NCBI GenBank assembly: GCA_040765825.1
Contig: JAXGRO010000003.1
Span: 27,262-91,261 of the forward strand
From: Methanomassiliicoccales archaeon
GTDB taxonomy: Archaea > Thermoplasmatota > Thermoplasmata > Methanomassiliicoccales > UBA472
Direction of reading: 5' to 3'
Length of the DNA: 64,000 nt
Below, piece after piece: positions 13,973 to 52,056 of the stretch; within the stretch, counting starts at the first letter, position 1; every line of letters starts with the position of its first letter. The translations under genes were made by a program, and so were the position numbers. The notes beneath the pieces were generated by a model. It saw only the letters and a list, made by a program, of their open reading frames with translations. It had not been told where the DNA came from and ran no database searches.

Positions 13973-14509
13973 ATGAACGCTGGGGAGGGTGATGATGGCA
14001 GCGGACCAGGGGACCAGGACTCGGTGGCTCTGGTGGACCACGACCCGAGCTGGACAGCGGCCTTCGAGAGGGAGAGGTCGGCCTTGCTCCTTCACCTGGG
14101 GGCATCGGCGCTCAGCGTGGAGCATGTGGGCAGCACCGCCGTGCCCGGGCTGAGGGCCAAACCGGTGCTGGACATCATGGTGGGGGTGAGGGAGCTCGCC
14201 CTTCCGGCATTCAAGGCCCCGCTGGAGGGGCTGGGGTACGTGCATGTGCCCATCGGGTGCCGGGAAAGGCTGTTCTTCCGCAAGGGCATGCCCCGCACCC
14301 ACCACCTGCACTTGGTGCTGGAAGGGGGAGAGGAGCAGCGGAGGCATCTCGCCTTCCGGGACTGGCTGAGAGGTCATCCGGAGGACGCCCGGGAGTACCA
14401 GGACCTGAAGGAGGGGCTGGCCGAGCGCTTCGCCCGTGACCGGGATTCGTACACCGAGGGCAAGGCGGGATTCATCAGAGGGATCCTGGCCAAGGCAATG
14501 GACGAGTAG
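13973..14509 (+). CDS. GrpB/UPF0157 family nucleotidyltransferase-like protein
   Basis: VEHVGSTAVPGLRAKPVLDI, HLAFRDWLR, YTEGK; SD ggaggg. Confidence 0.9.
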   Translation: MNAGEGDDGSGPGDQDSVALVDHDPSWTAAFERERSALLLHLGASALSVEHVGSTAVPGLRAKPVLDIMVGVRELALPAFKAPLEGLGYVHVPIGCRERLFFRKGMPRTHHLHLVLEGGEEQRRHLAFRDWLRGHPEDAREYQDLKEGLAERFARDRDSYTEGKAGFIRGILAKAMDE

Positions 14510-14589
14510 CCCGCTGGCCAAAACGATATAATGCCAGTATCCCCATTCCCTCAGGTCAGGAGCGTATCCCCACGAACGCCAACGAGATC

Positions 14590-15834
14590 ATGGAGAGAGG
14601 AGCCCAGAGCCAGCTTTTGAAGGACCCCTACGTGAGGCGGGTGTGGGACCTGATCAATGGCGAACCGCTCTTCAGCAAGAGCGCGGACGAGCTGGCCTCA
14701 TTGAGGGAATCGCTGCGCCGGGAATCGCTGCAGTTCTTCGCCCGGCACAGCCCCTACTATGTCGACCTCTTCGACCGCCTGGAGATAGACCCGGCCAAGG
14801 CCACCCTGCAGGACGTGGCCAAGCTGGCCATCCCCTCGGACATGCTGCGGGGGGACGGCCAGAAGCGCTTCCTGATCCAGGACCTGGAGGAGGGAGGGGA
14901 GACCTTCTCATCCAGTGGCACCACCGGCAAGGACCCCGTGCGCGTCTACCGATCGCCGGTGGACCTGGCCATCATGCTGAAGGCCAACACCGACCTGTTC
15001 GAGCATGTCTACGGGGACCTGCTGAAGGATGGCGAGGGCGTGGCCCTGTTCATGGCCGCGCCGGAGCTGCGCTCCAAGCTCAGCTTCGTGGCCTTCGTGG
15101 ACCTGACCCTGGACAAGAAGGGAATCGAACTGCTGTACGGCATGGACCTGGAGGACAAGTCCCAGGCCGGAACGCCCTGGCAGAAGCTGACCACCAACAA
15201 GGAGAACCTGCTCAAGTTCCTGAAGTCCAAGAAGGAGCCGAAGCTGTTCTTCACCGCCCCCGCCGGGGTGCACATCCTGGGGCAGAAGTTCGAGGGCATG
15301 GGGCTGGGGCAGAGGATGGCCTACAAGCTGGCCTCGGGCGCCCCGCCCATCCGTCTAGGGAAGGGAGGCGTTGTGGTCACCGGCGGTGGCTCCAAGGGCT
15401 TCGCCGATCTGCCGGAGTACCCGCAGCTGGTGGCCAACGCCCAGAAGCACTTCGTGAGCCACGACCGCTCCGGGAAGCAGGTGGAAACGCCATTCATGGA
15501 CGTCCTGGGGATGACGGAGACGCTGACCGCGCTCATCGACCGCCACGGGGTGATGGACAAGGTGCCGCACCCCCTGTCCGAGGCGTTCCTGCTGGATCCC
15601 ATGACCTTCGAGCTGGTGGAGGAGGAGGGGCGGGAGGGCATACTGGGGATATTCAACCCCTTCACCACCTCCTGGCTGGAGGTGTTCTACCCCGGCGACA
15701 TCATGACCTGGCATTCCTCGAAGGGCTTCTACGGCAAGGAGTTCGTGTACAAGCGCCGCCTGAGCGTGAAGGAGGGGTGGGACCTGCAGCGGGCCTGCGG
15801 AGGCACCCTGGAAGAGATGATGACCAAGCAGTAG
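14590..15834 (+). CDS. LuxE-like acyl-protein synthetase (ANL superfamily)
   Basis: FSSSGTTG ATP loop, TGGGSKG, DVLGMTE, PGDI, C-terminal RACG (candidate acylated Cys). Confidence 0.78.
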   Translation: MERGAQSQLLKDPYVRRVWDLINGEPLFSKSADELASLRESLRRESLQFFARHSPYYVDLFDRLEIDPAKATLQDVAKLAIPSDMLRGDGQKRFLIQDLEEGGETFSSSGTTGKDPVRVYRSPVDLAIMLKANTDLFEHVYGDLLKDGEGVALFMAAPELRSKLSFVAFVDLTLDKKGIELLYGMDLEDKSQAGTPWQKLTTNKENLLKFLKSKKEPKLFFTAPAGVHILGQKFEGMGLGQRMAYKLASGAPPIRLGKGGVVVTGGGSKGFADLPEYPQLVANAQKHFVSHDRSGKQVETPFMDVLGMTETLTALIDRHGVMDKVPHPLSEAFLLDPMTFELVEEEGREGILGIFNPFTTSWLEVFYPGDIMTWHSSKGFYGKEFVYKRRLSVKEGWDLQRACGGTLEEMMTKQ

Positions 15835-15871
15835 CCACATCATTAAAAGCGCCGATGGCGTTCCCCATCCC

Positions 15872-17338
15872 ATGTCCTCAACCGTAGAGCCGCTGCTGTT
15901 CGATCGAGCCCTTGAGACGGCCCCGAGCGCCGGCAACCCTGACGTTCTGGAACTGTCCCCGGCAGCCCTCGGGCAGCTCATGGAGGCCGCTCCGGCCGTG
16001 CAGGCGGAGCTGTCCTCGATCCCCATCGACGACCGGCTGCAGGTCATTGAGCACATGGCCAGACTCTGGAAGGACCGCCTGGACCGTGGTGATTACGATC
16101 GACTGAAGGAGGATATGTCCGCCTCCACCGGCTATTCCCCCGCGCTCATGGAGACCGAACTGTCCTTCGTGCCCGCGGTGCTCGGCGCGGCCAACATCCG
16201 CAAGAACCTGGAGGCCTCGGTGCAGGGGGGCGCCGAGGCCCTGCACCGCTTCGTGGAGATGGACGAGACGGAGATGTTCCGCCATGTGCCGGTCGGCCCG
16301 GTGCTCATCATCAGCTCCGGGAACTCCATCGTGCCCACGCTCATACCCACGGTGGTCTCCCTGGTGACCGGGAACCTGACCGTGCTCAAGCCCTCCATAT
16401 CCAACTACCGGGGGGTGACCGAGGTCTTCAGGCTTCTGGCCGAGGTCCCGGACTCCAGGGCCGCCCGGGCCATGCGCTCCGCGCTGGCGGTCTCCTACTT
16501 CGGCCATGACTCCCCCGCCCTGAAGGCCGCACTGGAGGAGATGCCTCTGGGCATGGTGAACTTCTGGGGGGCGGAGCCGGCCCGCAGCATCGTGGCCGGG
16601 ATGGTCGGGAAGAACGCCAACCATCCGCGCTTCTTCGTGAACGGGCCCTTCACCGGCATGGCCATAATCGAGGACGGCGTGGACCACCTGCAGGCCGCCG
16701 ACGACCTGGCCCTGGACGTGGTGCTCTACGACCAGCAGCTGTGCTCCTCGCCCACCACCGCGGTGTTCATCGGCCCCTACGAGAGGGCCAGGGAATTCCT
16801 GAGGACGGCGGGGGAACGATTGGACGCCACGGGCATGGAGTTCCCCCTGTCCCCGGACCAGGACCGCACTTTCATACTGCAGGGCGCCCGGCGCTTCATC
16901 CAGACAGACGGGGGACTGGTGCTGTCGTCCAAGGTCCCGGAGAACCCCTGGACCCTGGTGCTGTCCAGGGAACGCAGCTCCCTGGAGGGGCTGGCCAGGC
17001 AGTTCCCCACCTTCAACCTCTTCGCCCGCCGGCGCTTCCTGGAGGTCGTGGCGGTCCCGGACGCCGGCAGGGCGATGGAGCTTCTCCGCTCGCTGCCGCG
17101 GCACCCGGCCTTCCGGGGCATCGACGGGGTGCAGAGCATCGGACTGGCGATCACCGACGCCTCCATGCCGGCGATCGTGGACGGCCTGGTGAGGGCCGGG
17201 GTGCATCGCATACTGCCCCTGGGGGACATGTTCATGCGCGGGGCGGTGGAACCCTACGACGGGGTACCCATGACCTCCCTGTTCACCCGCATAGTGTACT
17301 GGAGGATGAGGAACGATGGACTGGAGGGGCAGCTTTGA
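15872..17338 (+). CDS. LuxC-like acyl-CoA/acyl-protein reductase
   Basis: ISSGNS, LKPS, NFWG, YDQQLCSSP catalytic Cys motif, GVHRILPLG...PYDG. Confidence 0.85.
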   Translation: MSSTVEPLLFDRALETAPSAGNPDVLELSPAALGQLMEAAPAVQAELSSIPIDDRLQVIEHMARLWKDRLDRGDYDRLKEDMSASTGYSPALMETELSFVPAVLGAANIRKNLEASVQGGAEALHRFVEMDETEMFRHVPVGPVLIISSGNSIVPTLIPTVVSLVTGNLTVLKPSISNYRGVTEVFRLLAEVPDSRAARAMRSALAVSYFGHDSPALKAALEEMPLGMVNFWGAEPARSIVAGMVGKNANHPRFFVNGPFTGMAIIEDGVDHLQAADDLALDVVLYDQQLCSSPTTAVFIGPYERAREFLRTAGERLDATGMEFPLSPDQDRTFILQGARRFIQTDGGLVLSSKVPENPWTLVLSRERSSLEGLARQFPTFNLFARRRFLEVVAVPDAGRAMELLRSLPRHPAFRGIDGVQSIGLAITDASMPAIVDGLVRAGVHRILPLGDMFMRGAVEPYDGVPMTSLFTRIVYWRMRNDGLEGQL

Positions 17339-18312
17339 GGGTGCTGGTCACCGGGGCCACCGGGTTCCTGGGAGGACATATGGTCAGCAAGATGGCCGGA
17401 GGGCCGCACGTCCCGGTGTGCGCCCATCGCCAGGGCAGCGACACCTCCAGGATAGACGCGCTGGGCCTGGAGAAGACCGTCCTCGACCTCACCGATCCCG
17501 CATCGATGAGGAACGCGCTGCGGGGGGTGGACGCGGTGTTGCACCTGGCGGCCTACTACACCTTCACCGGGAAGAAGGAGATGTACGAGAAGGTCAACGT
17601 CAAGGGCACAGGGGACCTTCTGGAGGCGTGCAGGGAGGCAGGCGTGCGGCGCTTCGTCTACTGCAGCAGCACCGAGGCCATGGGACCCATAGCGTCCCCG
17701 CCGGGGGACGAGGATTCCCCGCTCAACCCGCAGTATGAGTACGGACGATCGAAGGCCAGGGCGGAGGAGCTGGTGAGAGCGTCCGGCCTGGATTGGACCA
17801 TACTGCGCCCCTCGGGCATATACGGCCCGAGCAACGTGGACGATGTGGCCTATTACTTCATAACCTCCTTCAAGGGGTTCGCCTCCAAGTTCATAATCGG
17901 TTCGGGAAGGAACTACATCCAGTTCGTGCATGTGCAGGACGTGGTGCAGGCCTTCCTCAAGGCACTGGACGCTCCGGCGTCGATTTGCGGGACGTACATT
18001 ATCACCCAGGCCAGGCCGTACACCTACGAGGAGGTGTACCGCGTCCTGGCCAACATATTCCAGCAGCCCGAGCCGCGCTGGCGCCTGCGCAAGGGCCTGG
18101 CCAAGCTGATGATGCTGCCCATAGAGTCCTTCAACGCCCTGATCGGGCGGGAGAACTTCCTGTACCGCAGGGAGACGGTGGAGAGCGTGACCAGCGACCG
18201 GGCCTTCAGCATCGAGCGGGCCCGCAAGGACCTGGGGTACGAACCGGAGTACGATCTGCCGGAGGGAATGGCCGAGACGGTGGCCTGGTACCGGGAGAAC
18301 GGCCACCTGTGA
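17335..18312 (+). CDS. NAD-dependent epimerase/dehydratase (extended SDR; 3-beta-HSD/HpnA-like)
   Basis: TTG start overlaps the luxC-like stop; VTGATGFLG, HLAAYY, YGRSK, LRPSGIYGP. Confidence 0.9.
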   Translation: MRVLVTGATGFLGGHMVSKMAGGPHVPVCAHRQGSDTSRIDALGLEKTVLDLTDPASMRNALRGVDAVLHLAAYYTFTGKKEMYEKVNVKGTGDLLEACREAGVRRFVYCSSTEAMGPIASPPGDEDSPLNPQYEYGRSKARAEELVRASGLDWTILRPSGIYGPSNVDDVAYYFITSFKGFASKFIIGSGRNYIQFVHVQDVVQAFLKALDAPASICGTYIITQARPYTYEEVYRVLANIFQQPEPRWRLRKGLAKLMMLPIESFNALIGRENFLYRRETVESVTSDRAFSIERARKDLGYEPEYDLPEGMAETVAWYRENGHL

Positions 18313-18381
18313 GCAACGGTTATATCCGCTATCGGTTTTTACCGTCCCGGTGATCGGACGGAGAAGACGCTGTACCGCACA

Positions 18382-19311
18382 TTGCTGAACATGCTTAGGA
18401 TCAGCTATACCCTACCTTTCGTCATGGCCTCGGTCACCGGGGCGGCGTTCGCGCTCACGGTGGGCGACGAATGGCTCCTGGCGGTCCTGATACCGCTGGA
18501 CGTCTTCTTCTTCGCCCTGTTCGCCAACCTCAGCAACGATTACTTCGATCACAAGAGCGGCACCGACGCCACCCGCTTCGACTTCATGACCGACGAGCGC
18601 AAGGAGGCCATCAAGGAGCTGTACGACGAAAGGGTGTACTGGGACGGCAACATCTTTGACAAGGGGGACGTCAGCGAGCGGATCGGGAAGATGGTTCTGG
18701 CGACCATACTGGCCATGGCCCTGCTGACCGCCATCCCCATCGTATCGTACGGCGGCTGGCTGGTGATCGTCCTGGGGGCCATAGGCCTGTTCCTGGCCTA
18801 CTTCTACACCGCTCCCCCGCTGAACCTTGGCGCCCGGGGGCTGGGAGAGCTGGACGTGGGGGCCTCCTTCTTCATGATGTCCTTCTTCACCTACTACGTC
18901 ATCAGGCCCGAGTGGTCATGGCAGATGTTCCTGATCGGACTGATAGTGGGAACGTCGGTGATGCTCATGCGCTTCGTGGACCAGATGTCCGGATACGAGG
19001 CGCACGTCAAGGGAGGGGAGAAGGACTGGTGCGTGCGCCTGGGCCTGGAGAGGGCGGTGGGCGCCGTTGGCGTCATTCTGCTAGGGATACACATCATGCA
19101 CCTGGGGCTGGTCTATTTCCACCCGGTGTTCCTGATCCTGCTGCTCACTGTGCCCATGGGCCGGAGGATGATGCAGGGGCTCCGCGACAGGGACGACGAC
19201 CTGCGTTTCATCAGGCCGGCGCCGCAGATCGTCAAGATGGTCATCTTCAGCGAGATGCTCATCATCATTTCGTTGATAGTGCAAAACGCCCTGCCATGGA
19301 CATTATGGTAG
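18382..19311 (+). CDS. UbiA-family prenyltransferase, MenA/UBIAD1-like
   Basis: ANLSNDYFDHKSGTD, YTAPPLNLGARGLGE, second acidic motif DQMSGYEAH, multiple TM helices; start uncertain (possible ACG at 18358). Confidence 0.85.
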   Translation: MLNMLRISYTLPFVMASVTGAAFALTVGDEWLLAVLIPLDVFFFALFANLSNDYFDHKSGTDATRFDFMTDERKEAIKELYDERVYWDGNIFDKGDVSERIGKMVLATILAMALLTAIPIVSYGGWLVIVLGAIGLFLAYFYTAPPLNLGARGLGELDVGASFFMMSFFTYYVIRPEWSWQMFLIGLIVGTSVMLMRFVDQMSGYEAHVKGGEKDWCVRLGLERAVGAVGVILLGIHIMHLGLVYFHPVFLILLLTVPMGRRMMQGLRDRDDDLRFIRPAPQIVKMVIFSEMLIIISLIVQNALPWTLW

Positions 19312-20191
19312 AGGGGCTTCCCCTGGTGACCAGGGAGTACTCGCGCACCGCGTTGAACCCGCACCTCTTGCACGACTCGCCGCGCATCGGGCAGCCGTAA
19401 TGCTTGCTGCGGTCGGGCATGACGAACTCCGAGGCCCAGTACGGACATCTGTTGGTGTAGTCCTCGATGAGCAGCTCCTTCAGGGCCTTCCTGGAGTTGA
19501 GGATGGGGAACCCCTCCTTCTTGAGCGCGATGACCTCCTCCACCACCTTCCTCTTCTCCTCCAGGGTGAGGGTCTTCGAATCCGGCGGGGGGGTAAGGAA
19601 GTTGATCATCAGTCCGTTGATCCTCTTGCTGTCCTTCACGATCTGGGCCGTCTCCCTGATGAGGTGCCTGTTCTCGGGCATCACCACCATGTTGGCGAAC
19701 ACGTTGGGATGCTCCACCCTGTCCAGGTTGGCCATGAGCTTGTCGAAGGTCCCCGGGCAGCGTATGGCGTCATGCACCTCCCGGGGGCCGTCCAGGGATA
19801 CCGAGACCACGTCGCTCTCCAGATAGAAGATGTTGGTGCCGTTGGTGGTGTATCCGGTGACGTAGTATCCGATCTCCCTGCCGGCCTTGATCAGGTCCAG
19901 CAGGTTCCGGTCCCCGTCGCTCCAATGGGTGGGCTCTCCGCCCTCGAAGAACAGCACCCGGGCCCCCCGGTCGAAGGAGGCCTTCATCTCCTGAACCGCG
20001 TCGTCGTAGGATATCTTATGAGGCGGGGGGATCAGCGGAAGGTTCTCGGCGATATGGCAGTGCTGACATTTCAAGTTGCACTGGTACGTGATTATCATGG
20101 TGTTCACCAGGGGCCTCTTGAACCCCAGCAGCCCCTTAAGGAACCACACGCCGTAGTAGGCCGTCTGTCCCGCAGACCTCATCAAGCCCAT
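19265..20191 (-). CDS. Radical SAM protein with Cys-rich C-terminal extension
   Basis: CNLKCQHC, FEGGEP, VSLDG, C-terminal CPYW...GCP...CKRCG; upstream TTG start at 20221 possible. Confidence 0.88.
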   Translation of the reverse strand: MGLMRSAGQTAYYGVWFLKGLLGFKRPLVNTMIITYQCNLKCQHCHIAENLPLIPPPHKISYDDAVQEMKASFDRGARVLFFEGGEPTHWSDGDRNLLDLIKAGREIGYYVTGYTTNGTNIFYLESDVVSVSLDGPREVHDAIRCPGTFDKLMANLDRVEHPNVFANMVVMPENRHLIRETAQIVKDSKRINGLMINFLTPPPDSKTLTLEEKRKVVEEVIALKKEGFPILNSRKALKELLIEDYTNRCPYWASEFVMPDRSKHYGCPMRGESCKRCGFNAVREYSLVTRGSPSTIMSMAGRFALSTK

Positions 20192-20354
20192 GTCCACCCC
20201 ATCCCCGCCCGGATATTTCAATTGTGTCCGCCCGGCGGTCGTTCGGGCCTTGAGTTGGACGAATGGACCATCCCTGAAAAAAATATCCCTGGGACAAGCA
20301 TTAAATACTGGCCACCTGATTTTTTATTAACATTTTTCCAGGAGGACGAGACAC

Positions 20355-20609
20355 TTGAGCTTTAAAATGGAAGTTATCGAGAAGATAGCCGCTTTGATGA
20401 CCGCAGCCTTCGGATTGGTCGCCGCCTTGGCCTGGAACGCTGCCATAATTGAGCTTGTTGCCCAATTCCTGGACACTGGCGATGCCCTTATGGGCTACGT
20501 CATATACGCGGTGATCGTGACCGTGATCGCCGTGCTGGCGACGATCATCATCGCCAGGGCCGCCAACAAGATCAAGGCGAAGGAAGAGGCCAAGGCCAAG
20601 AAGGAGTAG
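20355..20609 (+). CDS. Small two-TM membrane protein (DUF5654-like)
   Basis: LMTAAFGLVAALAWNAAI and YAVIVTVIAV; SD ggagga. Confidence 0.8.
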   Translation: MSFKMEVIEKIAALMTAAFGLVAALAWNAAIIELVAQFLDTGDALMGYVIYAVIVTVIAVLATIIIARAANKIKAKEEAKAKKE

Positions 20610-47805: not shown

Positions 47806-50628
47806 CTATAGGCATGTGTTGTTGGTTGCGTTGTTGTTCGACGAACCTATCTTAATGTTGGCCTTGGTGCCCATGAAATTGTTGTTGTGGCTCAGATTGT
47901 TTCCGGACACCGTGTTGTATTCGCCGCTATAGATGTGGAGGCCGTCGCTGTTGTTGTAACAGGTGTTGTTGATTATGTTGTTGTAATCCGACGACACCAG
48001 ATATATGCCCGCGCTGTCCCCGGGTGTCCCATAGAAAATGTTGGGCGAAGCACAGGTGTTGTTGAGCAAGTTGTTGCGGTCAGAAATGGTCAGGCGGATC
48101 CCGTCCCCTGTGTTGTCCAGACACGTGCTGTTTGCTATGACATTATAAGAGGAATCATACACATAGATTCCGTGCTGTCCATTCTGGCTGCAGTTGTTGT
48201 TCGATAGGGTGTTGTGAGACGAGTAGTCCAGCCAGATGCCGTAATTGAAATCGGGGTTGGCGGTGTTAATGGAGCAGTTGTTGTTGGTAATGACATTGCC
48301 GTTCGAGTACGACAGGTAGATGCCGACACCGGCCTCGTTGAAGGTATTGTTCACGATGAAACCGTTATTGAAGGAGTCCCCCCTGAACCCCATATTGGCG
48401 TTACCCACGCAGGTGTTGTTGAACACGGTGGAACCAATGGAACTTATCATTTCGATGCCATTGACGCTGTTACCGATTATATTGTTGCCCACGATCACCA
48501 GGCCGTTGGAATAGTATGAATACAGCCCGGTCTGGCATGCGGTCATGCTGCTGTTGGTCACCACGGTGCCGTCCGCGTAGACTAGGTACAACCCATAGGA
48601 TTGGCATCCGTTCAACACGGTGTTGTTGACCACGGTACCGCTGATGATCGAATTATGTTCGTCATTCACGATGATGCCGTAATCGCAGTTGGCGACGGTG
48701 TTCCCGTCGATGAGGTTCCCGGGCGATTGGGTCGATATATCGATTCCGCGATGGTTGGACATCAGTTTGTTGCCGCGGAGCACGTTGGCGGATGAATACG
48801 TCAGCCTGATGCCGTAGTAGTTGCCGTTGCAAGTGTTGTCGTAGACCAGGTCCTCCTGCGAGGCGTCGAGAATGATCCCGATGCCCCCGGAGCCCGGACC
48901 GTTATCGTTGCAGGTGTTGTTGGACACCATGCAGTCATAAGAATTGCTCAGGTAAATGCCGGCCTGGGAGTTCTCGGAGCAATTGTTGTTGTCGACGACG
49001 TTCCGATCGCTCTCGGTCATGAGCGTTATTCCGTAAGCGTTACCAATGCAGGTGTTGTTGGCGATCTTGCATTCGATGGAACCGGAGACATCTATGCCGT
49101 AAATGTTGTCATTGCAGGTGTTGTTGGTGATGATGGTATAACTGCAACTGGCCATAACGTAGATCCCATTGTTGATGTTCCCGTTGCAGGTGTTGTTGTG
49201 GATCACGTTCTCTGTGGAGAACGCGTCCGTCCGGGAATATAGCGCTATACCGACGTTGTTTCCATTGCAGGTGTTGTTCTGGAGCGTGTTCAGCGAGGAA
49301 CAGTACAGGGATATGCCCACGTCCCCATCGTTCCCACTGCAGTTGTTGCTGGTGATCAGATTTTCGTTCGAGTATTCAAGGTAGATGCCGTCTATGACGC
49401 TATCGTTGCATTCATTGAAAGAGATTGAATTGTATGAGCTGTAATAGATATAAATCCCATAGTTATTCCCGTTAAGATCGTTTCTTTGCAGGACGTTGTT
49501 ATCAGATGATTCGAGATAGATACCATTGAAGTTGCCACTCGCGACATTGAACTCCATTGTGCAACAATCGGACGCATCTAGCCAGATCCCAGAATCACCG
49601 TTGCCGGTGATGGTGTTGGACTCGATATGGTTCCACGACGAGGCACTGATATGAATGCCCGACCCTACGTTATCATTGACGGTGTTGGAGGAGATGGTGT
49701 TGTTCGGTGCGTTCAGGACCCAGATCCCATAGTAGTTACCGCTGAGCTCGTTGTTCGAGATGGTATTGTTCGACATATCATAGGTCGTTGAAGAGGAGAG
49801 GAATACTCCTGCACCCCACTCCGTGATCAAAGCGTTCCCGGAGCAGTTGTTGTTATCGATCACGTTTCCAGTGGTCACGGAGCTTGAAGATTGGAGCACG
49901 ATACCCGCGATGTAATTGTTGCGGCAGATGTTCTCCGTGATCGTGTTATTCATCGAGGAATCGATGACCATCCCGCTCCCTTCTATGTCATCGCAGATGT
50001 TGGCGGACAGGGTGTTGAAGTGCGAGAAGAAGAGGTCGATACCGGCGTTGTTCCCGCTGCAGTTGTTCTCCTCCAGGCTGTTGTTTTCGGAATATCTCAG
50101 CTGGATGCCCACCCTTCCGGAGGGGCTTTCGATGTCCAGCACGCAGGTGTTGTTGAAAAGGAGGTTGTGATCGGAATCCTCGAGGAATATCCCGGTATTG
50201 TGGTTCACAAAGGTGTTGTTCCTAACGACATTGCTGTGGGAATTGAACAGTCCCACTCCAGCATAGCAATCGACCAGGGTGTTGTTCTCCACGGTCACGT
50301 TCTTGACGTTCTGGAGATGGATCGTTGCTGAAGGCCCGGAGGAATCGGATAGGTAACAGTTCAGTATCTTCACATGAAGGTCCGTATCGTAGATCGCTAT
50401 CGCGCTACCACCTGCACCATCGATATCATAGTTCTGGATCAGGAACGGATCCGCCTCCGTCCCTGAACCGGGGAAACCAGAGGTGGTCAGGTCCGTATTG
50501 TCGAGGATGAGGATGGGGATGTGCGCATCATAGGCCTGCGCCGAACCGGACATGCCAGCGGTCAAAAGAACGATCGAGGTCAATAGCAATAGAGCTGATA
50601 CAAGACACCTGCTGAACACCTTACGCAA
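47806..50628 (-). CDS. Giant surface protein B, intact 5' 940 codons (signal peptide plus parallel beta-helix/NosD repeats)
   Basis: Signal peptide ..GSAQA, GSGTEADPFLI, dozens of GIxL...NNTC coils; frame breaks near 47810 and the gene continues to 44960. Confidence 0.88.
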   Translation of the reverse strand: MRKVFSRCLVSALLLLTSIVLLTAGMSGSAQAYDAHIPILILDNTDLTTSGFPGSGTEADPFLIQNYDIDGAGGSAIAIYDTDLHVKILNCYLSDSSGPSATIHLQNVKNVTVENNTLVDCYAGVGLFNSHSNVVRNNTFVNHNTGIFLEDSDHNLLFNNTCVLDIESPSGRVGIQLRYSENNSLEENNCSGNNAGIDLFFSHFNTLSANICDDIEGSGMVIDSSMNNTITENICRNNYIAGIVLQSSSSVTTGNVIDNNNCSGNALITEWGAGVFLSSSTTYDMSNNTISNNELSGNYYGIWVLNAPNNTISSNTVNDNVGSGIHISASSWNHIESNTITGNGDSGIWLDASDCCTMEFNVASGNFNGIYLESSDNNVLQRNDLNGNNYGIYIYYSSYNSISFNECNDSVIDGIYLEYSNENLITSNNCSGNDGDVGISLYCSSLNTLQNNTCNGNNVGIALYSRTDAFSTENVIHNNTCNGNINNGIYVMASCSYTIITNNTCNDNIYGIDVSGSIECKIANNTCIGNAYGITLMTESDRNVVDNNNCSENSQAGIYLSNSYDCMVSNNTCNDNGPGSGGIGIILDASQEDLVYDNTCNGNYYGIRLTYSSANVLRGNKLMSNHRGIDISTQSPGNLIDGNTVANCDYGIIVNDEHNSIISGTVVNNTVLNGCQSYGLYLVYADGTVVTNSSMTACQTGLYSYYSNGLVIVGNNIIGNSVNGIEMISSIGSTVFNNTCVGNANMGFRGDSFNNGFIVNNTFNEAGVGIYLSYSNGNVITNNNCSINTANPDFNYGIWLDYSSHNTLSNNNCSQNGQHGIYVYDSSYNVIANSTCLDNTGDGIRLTISDRNNLLNNTCASPNIFYGTPGDSAGIYLVSSDYNNIINNTCYNNSDGLHIYSGEYNTVSGNNLSHNNNFMGTKANIKIGSSNNNATNNTCL

Positions 50629-50811: not shown

Positions 50812-52056
50812 GTGGACCGGATGCTCATAAAGCTGCCATACGGCGAAGGCGGAGTGCTCAAGGCCAAGGTCCCGGAAAATCTGGCCGGTATCGTCGGGCC
50901 GCACGAGGTGCACTGCGCTCCGGACGAGATCGAAAGGGCGCTTTCCAAACCGTTCGGCCGCGCCCTCGATTCCTTTCTGAAGGACGCGGAGGACATCGTC
51001 TTCCTGGTGAACGATGGAACGAGGCCGACGCCCACAGCCAGGGTGCTGGATGTTCTGGCCGGCCATATGGACCTGGGCAAAGCGCGTTACCTCATAGCCA
51101 CCGGCGCGCACCGCGGCCCTACCGAGGGCGAGCTGAAGTTCATCTTCGGCGATCATTTGAAGGACCTCCGGGAACGCATCGTCGTGCACGACGCCAAGCG
51201 TTCAAAGTGCGTTCATCTCGGCCAATCCAAGAACGGCACGGACATGGAGGTGAACGAGATAGCGGTGAACGCCGACCGCCTGATCATAATCACCAGCGTG
51301 GAGCCGCATTACTTCGCCGGCTACACCGGGGGAAGGAAGTCCTTCCTGCCCGGCGTGGCCTCCTTCCGCACCATCGAGCAGAACCACAGGCTGGCCATGC
51401 GGCCGGAGGCCAAGACCCTGGTCCTGGATGGCAACCCGGTGCATGAGGACATGATGGACGCCCTCTCCGTGGTCAAGAAGGACATCTTCTCCATCCAGGT
51501 GGTCCTGGACCGCCATCAGCGCATCTACAAGGCCGCGGCTGGCGACCTGCACAAGGCCTTCCGGCAGGCGGTGGAGTGGGCCGATGATGTCTTCTCCATC
51601 ACCATCAGGCAGCGCTACGACGCGGTGATAACCGTAGCACCATATCCTATGGACGTGGACCTGTACCAATCGCAGAAGGCCATAGACAACGCCAAGTGGG
51701 CGCTCAGGGACGGTGGTACACTCATACTCGTCGCCAAGTGCCGTGAGGGCATGGGCGAGGAGACCTTCGCCAAACAGCTTTCGTTCTCGCCGGACAAGAG
51801 GCAGGTCCTCAGGAACCTGGATAAGGAGTACGAGCTCGGATTTCACAAGGCCGCCAAGATGGCCGATATCATGTGCCGATGCGATATTTGGGCGGTCACC
51901 GCCCTGGACCCTGCCATCCTGAAGGGCATGGGCATGGTCCCCTTCCGGGGGCTGCAGGAGGCTGTGGACGAGCTGCTGAGGCAAAAGCCCAAAGCGGAGG
52001 TGCTCGTTCTCCTGGACGGCAGCGTGACCGTTCCGAGGGTGCGTGAAGATGAGTGA
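50812..52056 (+). CDS. larA: Nickel-pincer-dependent lactate racemase family protein
   Basis: VNDGTRP, ATGAHR, VHDA, EPHYFAGYTGGRKS, QNH, DLYQSQKA, GFHKA. Confidence 0.9.
   Translation: MDRMLIKLPYGEGGVLKAKVPENLAGIVGPHEVHCAPDEIERALSKPFGRALDSFLKDAEDIVFLVNDGTRPTPTARVLDVLAGHMDLGKARYLIATGAHRGPTEGELKFIFGDHLKDLRERIVVHDAKRSKCVHLGQSKNGTDMEVNEIAVNADRLIIITSVEPHYFAGYTGGRKSFLPGVASFRTIEQNHRLAMRPEAKTLVLDGNPVHEDMMDALSVVKKDIFSIQVVLDRHQRIYKAAAGDLHKAFRQAVEWADDVFSITIRQRYDAVITVAPYPMDVDLYQSQKAIDNAKWALRDGGTLILVAKCREGMGEETFAKQLSFSPDKRQVLRNLDKEYELGFHKAAKMADIMCRCDIWAVTALDPAILKGMGMVPFRGLQEAVDELLRQKPKAEVLVLLDGSVTVPRVREDE

Follow-up and report, generated by a model that had tools for sequence, protein, structure and literature searches.

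Gene content of the locus

We analysed a 64,000-nucleotide stretch of DNA (hereafter the window; contig JAXGRO010000003.1, assembly GCA_040765825.1) from a Methanomassiliicoccales archaeon, whose genome is designated G000. Positions 14590 to 20221 hold five long open reading frames (ORFs), four on the + strand and one convergent on the − strand. They encode a LuxE-like adenylating enzyme, a LuxC-family reductase and an extended short-chain dehydrogenase/reductase (SDR), which constitute module 1 (14590–18312; the trio), and a UbiA-superfamily prenyltransferase and a radical S-adenosylmethionine (SAM) enzyme, which constitute module 2 (18382–20221; the pair). The genes, with aldehyde dehydrogenase abbreviated as ALDH, and two putative promoter-like elements are as follows.

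14590–15834, + strand: LuxE-like protein (predicted PaaK-fold adenylate-forming enzyme), 414 aa
15872–17338, + strand: LuxC-family (ALDH-fold) acyl-thioester reductase, 488 aa; PF05893
17335–18312, + strand: extended SDR, TTG start overlapping the LuxC stop, 325 aa; PF01370 and PF01073
18382–19311, + strand: divergent MenA-like UbiA-superfamily prenyltransferase, 309 aa; PF01040
19265–20221, − strand: radical SAM enzyme, PF04055; probable true start at the ATG at 20191
14526–14532, + strand: TATA-like AT-rich element ATATAAT, 64 nt 5′ of the LuxE-like start; a motif reading only
18320–18325, + strand: TATA-like TTATAT, with a T-run at 18336–18340, in the SDR–UbiA spacer; a motif reading only

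The translations contain SSSGTTG, QRACGG and YDQQLCSSP. The TTG start of the SDR gene and the LuxC stop overlap as cTTGA, a 69-nt spacer separates the SDR gene from the UbiA gene, for which an alternative ATG start lies at 18391, and the UbiA and radical SAM genes overlap tail to tail over 47 nt (19265–19311). The five genes, their motifs, the coupling of the SDR and the 47-nt overlap were all present as described in a first-pass annotation of the window, which had also ended the radical SAM gene at 20191; the orthologues indeed start at the Met equivalent to the ATG at that position.

The LuxC-like, SDR, UbiA and radical SAM proteins passed Pfam cut-offs and the product of the first gene did not. 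The luciferase family PF00296 (luxA/luxB) and the LuxD family PF02273 had no match in G000, which is 81% complete, so the locus does not qualify as a lux operon, in agreement with the earlier reading that luxA, luxB and luxD are absent. The closest public loci, at 89–90% identity, carry the labels Methanomassiliicoccales, Methanomassiliicoccaceae or Methanomassiliicoccus.

The LuxE-like, LuxC-like and SDR genes

Profile comparison and modelling indicate that the first gene product is a PaaK-fold adenylating enzyme and a remote homologue of LuxE. Its AlphaFold2 (AF2) model, with a predicted local distance difference test (pLDDT) value of 79.4, found PaaK2, PaaK1 and BT_0428 as its best folds in the PDB (E 4e-12, TM about 0.6), and NCBIfam returned weak N-terminal matches to PaaK, FlxY and DVU1553. 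The family profile aligned with one protein of the Pfam LuxE family PF04443 (P0289) over 335 columns (hhalign probability 98.4%, E 8.5e-15); searched by sequence against solved structures, it gave nothing useful (best E 0.062). Among 1.84 billion representatives, just 71 proteins matched the profile at E ≤ 1e-3, indicating that the family is small and isolated. P0289 was one of these 71, and distant family members are labelled Theionarchaea and Pseudonocardia.

The mean column identity of a 13-sequence alignment covering several phyla was 70%. Both SSGT, part of a P-loop-like SSGT(T/S) motif, and the C-terminal QRAC403GG were invariant, with Cys403 present in 13/13 sequences, and the tail beyond this residue (404–414) was modelled as disordered (pLDDT < 50). 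The two hallmarks of a LuxE-type mechanism, a C-terminal tail that is mobile and carries a conserved Cys, and a link to LuxC (here a predicted complex and a natural fusion), were found together, and Cys403 itself may be acylated. The Cys tail and the LuxC partner also point to a protein thiol, in place of CoA, as the probable acyl acceptor. A metagenomic protein of 884 aa (P0251) is a natural fusion of the adenylating domain (residues 5–383) with a PF05893 LuxC domain (residues 422–754).

The second gene product belongs to the PF05893 family (113.4 bits, cut-off 21, E 1.5e-32). Its catalytic Cys291, within LYDQQLCSSPT, and the motif itself were invariant in 12/12 orthologues from several phyla. 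On the LuxC equivalog NF052251 of NCBIfam it scored 35.2 bits against a cut-off of 750, which places it outside the LuxC orthologues of lux operons. In complex prediction, the LuxE-like and LuxC-like proteins scored 0.64 together, compared with 0.00 for the best of 3 controls; that mark is reached by 58/80 solved complexes and by 2/110 mismatched pairs. The runs had at least 56% of contacts in common, with a partner pLDDT of at least 77. Binding of the two proteins is a prediction only, and since a LuxC–LuxE complex, that of Photobacterium phosphoreum, has already been solved (PDB 7XC6; PMC12041015), the score may reflect likeness to it rather than binding. For the bacterial system, PMC12041015 reports that the acid is adenylated, bound as a thioester to the C-terminal Cys364 of LuxE, passed on to Cys296 of the LuxC reductase and reduced to the aldehyde with NADPH. 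The invariant Cys residues, the fusion protein and the predicted complex fit a LuxCE-type acid-to-aldehyde reductase.

The third protein matched the Epimerase/3b-HSD family (PF01370) with 142 bits, and its TGxxGFxG nucleotide motif and Ser111/Tyr136/Lys140 identify it as an extended SDR; T6, G7, G10, G13, S111, Y136 and K140 were invariant in 11/11 orthologues. Its best NCBIfam models were HpnA, OleD and SdmB, each under its cut-off. Since these act on lipid-like substrates, we infer that the trio may use a lipophilic acid.

To follow the trio through archaea, we kept 80 loci out of 91 relatives found; 71 of them extended at least 2.6 kb downstream and nine were too short. The LuxE-like, LuxC and SDR genes stood in the same order in 65/71 loci, two others had LuxC only and four had neither LuxC nor the SDR. 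The loci are labelled Methanomassiliicoccales, Methanomethylicia, Odinarchaeia, Brockarchaeota, Thermofilaceae, Desulfurococcaceae/Sulfolobales, Conexivisphaerales and Methanofastidiosia, so that the trio spans Thermoplasmatota, Thermoproteota, Odinarchaeia, Brockarchaeota and others, and the LuxE-like homologues of these many lineages share 59–66% identity between phyla. One locus (L034) comes from a genome whose record carries the label Methanosuratincola petrocarbonis isolate LWZ-6, a strain described as isolated (PMC12244365). In a tree of the LuxE-like proteins made by a quick method (83 rows), Thermoplasmatota made up three clades at the base, and a single clade with a support of 96 held the remaining 47 rows, a topology compatible both with transfer between phyla and with its absence. 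Clustering of all ORFs in the trio loci revealed no further family conserved across phyla; among candidate conserved neighbours of the trio or the pair, stomatin/NfeD, a Glu-synthase-like gene and ribulose-phosphate 3-epimerase were set aside as lineage-local.

Four loci (L041, L080, L081 and L087) keep the LuxE-like gene and show neither LuxC nor the SDR in the sequence around it. Partial loss of the trio is suggested for L041 and L080, where the LuxE-like gene is followed directly by the genes that usually lie downstream in Methanomethylicia.

These observations support reading the first three genes as an acid-reduction system. The first-pass annotation had taken LuxE and LuxC, with the coupled SDR, as an ATP- and NAD(P)H-dependent unit converting a carboxylic acid to an aldehyde, and this can now be extended to a module common to many archaeal lineages. 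In the mechanism that we infer, the PaaK-fold LuxE-related enzyme would adenylate an acid and load it as a thioester on Cys403; from the flexible tail, the acyl group would move to the LuxC-family reductase at its Cys291, and the reductase would free the aldehyde with NAD(P)H; and the coupled extended SDR would most likely turn the aldehyde into an alcohol. None of the papers listed in our literature search concerned an archaeal LuxC/LuxE system, judged on titles and the starts of abstracts.

The UbiA–radical SAM pair

The fourth protein is a member of the UbiA superfamily (PF01040, 58.5 bits, cut-off 34.2). In a 10-orthologue alignment its first motif, NDYFD, showed an invariant N52-D53-x-x-D56; its second motif takes a variant form, D200...(E/D)-A207-H208, and an extra loop, YWxGNxFDxG, is conserved. 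The earlier description of this protein as MenA-like held, in that MenA is its nearest family both by NCBIfam and by atlas features (neighbours named MenA, score 0.93). The protein cannot be assigned to MenA itself, however: MenA-type NCBIfam models scored 33–64 bits against cut-offs of 102–346 (best 64.2 versus 225), and the men/mqn pathway was not found in G000 and four near-complete relatives, where PF02621 (MqnA/D), MenB and MqnC each gave 0/5 above cut-off. Sequence comparison with solved structures returned chlorophyll synthase only (E 2.4e-4). The protein is the fourth and most divergent UbiA paralogue of G000. Two of the others match models of the digeranylgeranylglyceryl phosphate synthase (DGGGPS) type with 257 and 271.5 bits, and such models were absent from the 12 NCBIfam matches of the protein studied here, which is therefore not classed as a DGGGP synthase. 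An in-frame TGA in some UbiA matches was dismissed as a stop codon read through at the C-terminus.

The fifth protein belongs to the radical SAM superfamily (PF04055, 63.9 bits, cut-off 29.5), and C48, C52 and C55 of its CX3CX2C core were invariant in 14/14 sequences. It has a GGEPT motif, an N-terminal hydrophobic helix and four invariant C-terminal Cys residues (259, 277, 284 and 287), which likely bind one auxiliary cluster. Its length is about 308–318 aa and the pLDDT of its AF2 model is 75. PF04055 was the sole Pfam domain in the 318-aa form; no B12-binding domain was found, which sets it apart from class B methylases. The PTO1314 family model TIGR03961 gave 49.4 bits against 306, placing the protein outside that family, and the other weak NCBIfam matches, TIGR04053 and NirJ/AhbD/HpnH, also lay below cut-off; a resemblance to AhbC was seen as well. 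Fold matches were generic (anSME, CteB, viperin and DesII, with GDGT-MAS at 21–22% identity), and the only solved structure matched by sequence was SkfB (E 0.0022). All named close homologues, among the matches listed (120 of 227), were from Methanomassiliicoccales.

The UbiA and radical SAM genes occurred in the same 38 of 41 relatives, adjacent and usually with the 3′ overlap; the relatives without them were three genomes of family f7 only. Among 201 genomes sampled from the phylum, UbiA matches at the level of orthologues (E ≤ 4e-68) were confined to the order and included 1/19 f7 genomes. UbiA and radical SAM were the only genes common to all 11/11 pair loci examined, which showed no further conserved neighbour. 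In family f6 (L108:9592–10245; L112), a ribulose-phosphate 3-epimerase gene is inserted between the two, breaking the usual 3′ overlap.

Around the five genes, a GrpB-family gene (13973–14509, + strand) lies directly 5′ of the trio; its synteny is limited to Methanomassiliicoccaceae-type loci, and in other phyla it does not neighbour the trio. A small membrane protein of 80 aa with DUF5654 (20367–20609, + strand; 71.8 bits) is encoded between radical SAM and a type II glyceraldehyde-3-phosphate dehydrogenase (GAPDH) gene. The window as a whole is G+C-rich (0.50–0.67). Its lowest-GC part (0.50 versus about 0.63) is occupied by a gene for a 940-aa protein with eight NosD/right-handed beta-helix repeats (47806–50628, − strand), which may be a surface protein or acquired DNA, and a LarA-like protein with lactate racemase N- and C-terminal domains is encoded nearby (50812–52056, + strand).

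Probable separation of the two modules and comparison with known systems

The five-gene arrangement was present in 15 of the 63 loci with at least 4.7 kb downstream, all of the Methanomassiliicoccaceae type, and also in genomes G016, G017, G018, G020, G023, G024 and G035. In the remaining 48 loci the trio stood without the pair. Searches of five whole trio-bearing genomes of other phyla found an orthologue of either pair gene in 0/5, with generic matches only (identities of ≤ 26% for UbiA and ≤ 37% for radical SAM). The pair is likewise found without the trio: LuxC orthologues (E ≤ 2e-117) were detected in 21/41 relatives, two further matches at E about 6e-4 not being orthologues, and 17/38 pair-bearing relatives had none. 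Near-complete genomes such as G007, G021, G025, G026 and G028 carry the pair without the trio, and two genomes with trio deletions, G007 and G009, belong to the same genus as G000. In G007, only a 3′ SDR fragment with 83% identity (L103:10102–10656) is left and abuts GrpB; the deletion took the LuxE-like and LuxC genes together with the 5′ part of the SDR gene and spared the pair. In G009, UbiA directly adjoins the acetohydroxyacid synthase (AHAS) gene, the trio being deleted and the pair kept. G019 and G027 have trio genes and the pair at separate sites. Together, these results indicate that the adjacency of trio and pair is a Methanomassiliicoccaceae-specific juxtaposition and that module 2 is specific to the order Methanomassiliicoccales and independent of module 1. 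We consider it probable that the region comprises two modules with separable functions, which are neighbours in Methanomassiliicoccaceae alone. In the second of these, the MenA-like UbiA protein and the membrane-associated radical SAM enzyme would probably prenylate and radical-tailor a membrane-bound small molecule or lipid.

The first-pass annotation had instead joined all five genes in a single pathway: an acid would become first an aldehyde and then an alcohol, UbiA would prenylate the product and the radical SAM enzyme would tailor it, and the outcome would be a new lipid, head group or redox carrier. This now appears quite improbable, and the distribution does not support it: co-occurrence in other genomes held within the trio and within the pair, and failed for the join between them, as shown by the 48 loci and five other-phylum genomes with the trio alone, the 17 relatives with the pair and no LuxC orthologue, and the two same-genus deletions that left the pair intact. 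Since the AHAS, GrpB and GAPDH flanks are syntenic in the five-gene loci, the adjacency of trio and pair may be inherited gene order. The SDR–UbiA gap moreover holds a TATA-like element and a T-run, with TTATAT 62 nt from the UbiA start, a spacing similar to that between ATATAAT and the LuxE-like start (64 nt). Several points nevertheless weigh against two separate modules. Several genera of Methanomassiliicoccaceae keep the five genes next to one another and co-oriented, at 45–70% identity and with the 69-nt SDR–UbiA gap, so that local co-transcription or a lineage-specific functional link is possible. The promoter-like elements before the LuxE-like and UbiA genes are candidates read from motifs. 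Contigs from RNA libraries of one study bridge the SDR–UbiA gap in 3/4 runs (X1, X3 and X4); this is weak support for a single pathway, since all four RNA-labelled runs (X1–X4) cover the whole stretch at flat depth in contigs of up to 140 kb, which makes carried-over DNA likely and means that they cannot show transcription or operon structure. The relatives are not independent samples, and several of the genomes lacking LuxC are just 82–83% complete (G004, G012 and G014). The LuxE-like protein has no Pfam match, PF04443 being matched by 0/13 family members at E ≤ 1.

The pair on its own could build a membrane cofactor that has so far escaped recognition, either a prenylated aromatic compound or one of tetrapyrrole type, for example a quinone-like carrier. 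MenA types and chlorophyll synthases supply the nearest models of UbiA, a weak likeness links the radical SAM enzyme to the tetrapyrrole enzymes NirJ, AhbC and AhbD, and core lipid synthesis is already covered by the two DGGGPS-type paralogues; yet the MenA, chlorophyll synthase and tetrapyrrole-enzyme matches all lie far under their cut-offs, men/mqn genes were not found in the five genomes searched, and the complex I homologue of Methanomassiliicoccales is said in PMC10673518 not to use a membrane-soluble carrier, so that this role seems unlikely. It is very unlikely that the pair makes or modifies the butanetriol and pentanetriol dialkyl glycerol tetraether (BDGT and PDGT) backbones typical of Methanomassiliicoccus, with the radical SAM enzyme acting on glycerol C-3. 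A review (PMC11767167) states that these lipids arise by methionine methyl transfer onto C-3 of the glycerol of glycerol dialkyl glycerol tetraethers (GDGTs), the labelling implying a radical SAM-type methyl transfer, no enzyme for it being named in the passages on these lipids. The order-specific and, outside family f7, nearly universal occurrence of the pair, the N-terminal hydrophobic helix of the radical SAM enzyme and the presence of GDGT-MAS among its fold matches are in line with such a role. Enzymes that methylate sp3 carbons, however, usually carry a cobalamin-binding domain, whereas this protein of about 308–318 aa has PF04055 alone, and methylation would leave the prenyltransferase without a role. 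Bathyarchaeia are also reported to make BDGTs (PMC13003381), yet the named close homologues of the radical SAM enzyme, among the matches listed, are from Methanomassiliicoccales only. A link between the five genes and the butanetriol or pentanetriol lipids, which the first-pass annotation had mentioned as made by Methanomassiliicoccales, is further disfavoured by the reported origin of these lipids from a methionine methyl group rather than a reduced acid (PMC11767167). We likewise hold little expectation that the trio supplies a lipid-like alcohol and was recruited beside the pair in Methanomassiliicoccaceae to give an undescribed ether lipid or membrane cofactor. Our literature search yielded no work joining Methanomassiliicoccales, a prenyltransferase and radical SAM.

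With the region read as two modules, adjacency inside one family had over-suggested a single pathway, which is a lesson for annotation. The UbiA–radical SAM pair cleanly marks the order, a lineage whose lipids and respiratory chain are both unusual. Bioluminescence is the setting in which LuxCE-type fatty acid reductases are known. The trio is a distant version of them that is tightly conserved, has gained an SDR and occurs in many lineages of uncultured anaerobic archaea, and it provides a testable route to archaeal aldehydes or alcohols, compounds seldom considered in archaeal lipid biology.

Among known systems, the trio most resembles LuxC–LuxE of luminous bacteria: an adenylate-forming subunit with a Cys near its C-terminus is encoded next to an ALDH-fold reductase in which the catalytic Cys alone is conserved, and here a complex is predicted and a natural fusion was found. 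It differs in being archaeal and free of luxA, luxB or luxD matches, in having an adenylating subunit outside Pfam LuxE and a LuxC with just 35 bits on the equivalog, and in the extended SDR that is almost always attached as a third gene. The closest folds to the LuxE-like protein are those of the PaaK-family aryl/acyl-CoA ligases PaaK1, PaaK2 and BT_0428 (380–395 aligned columns), from which it is separated by a sequence identity of just 13–17%, a conserved C-terminal Cys tail and an obligatory LuxC partner. MenA shares the NDxxD first motif with the UbiA protein, which departs from it in an altered second Asp motif, an extra conserved loop and a setting without men/mqn. The top fold and sequence neighbours of the radical SAM enzyme are SPASM/twitch enzymes (anSME, CteB/SkfB, the PTO1314 family, HpnH and GDGT-MAS), with which it has a CX3CX2C core and C-terminal Cys ligands in common; unlike them, it is short (about 308 aa), has four auxiliary Cys residues rather than seven or eight, scores below every family cut-off and is always paired with a UbiA gene.

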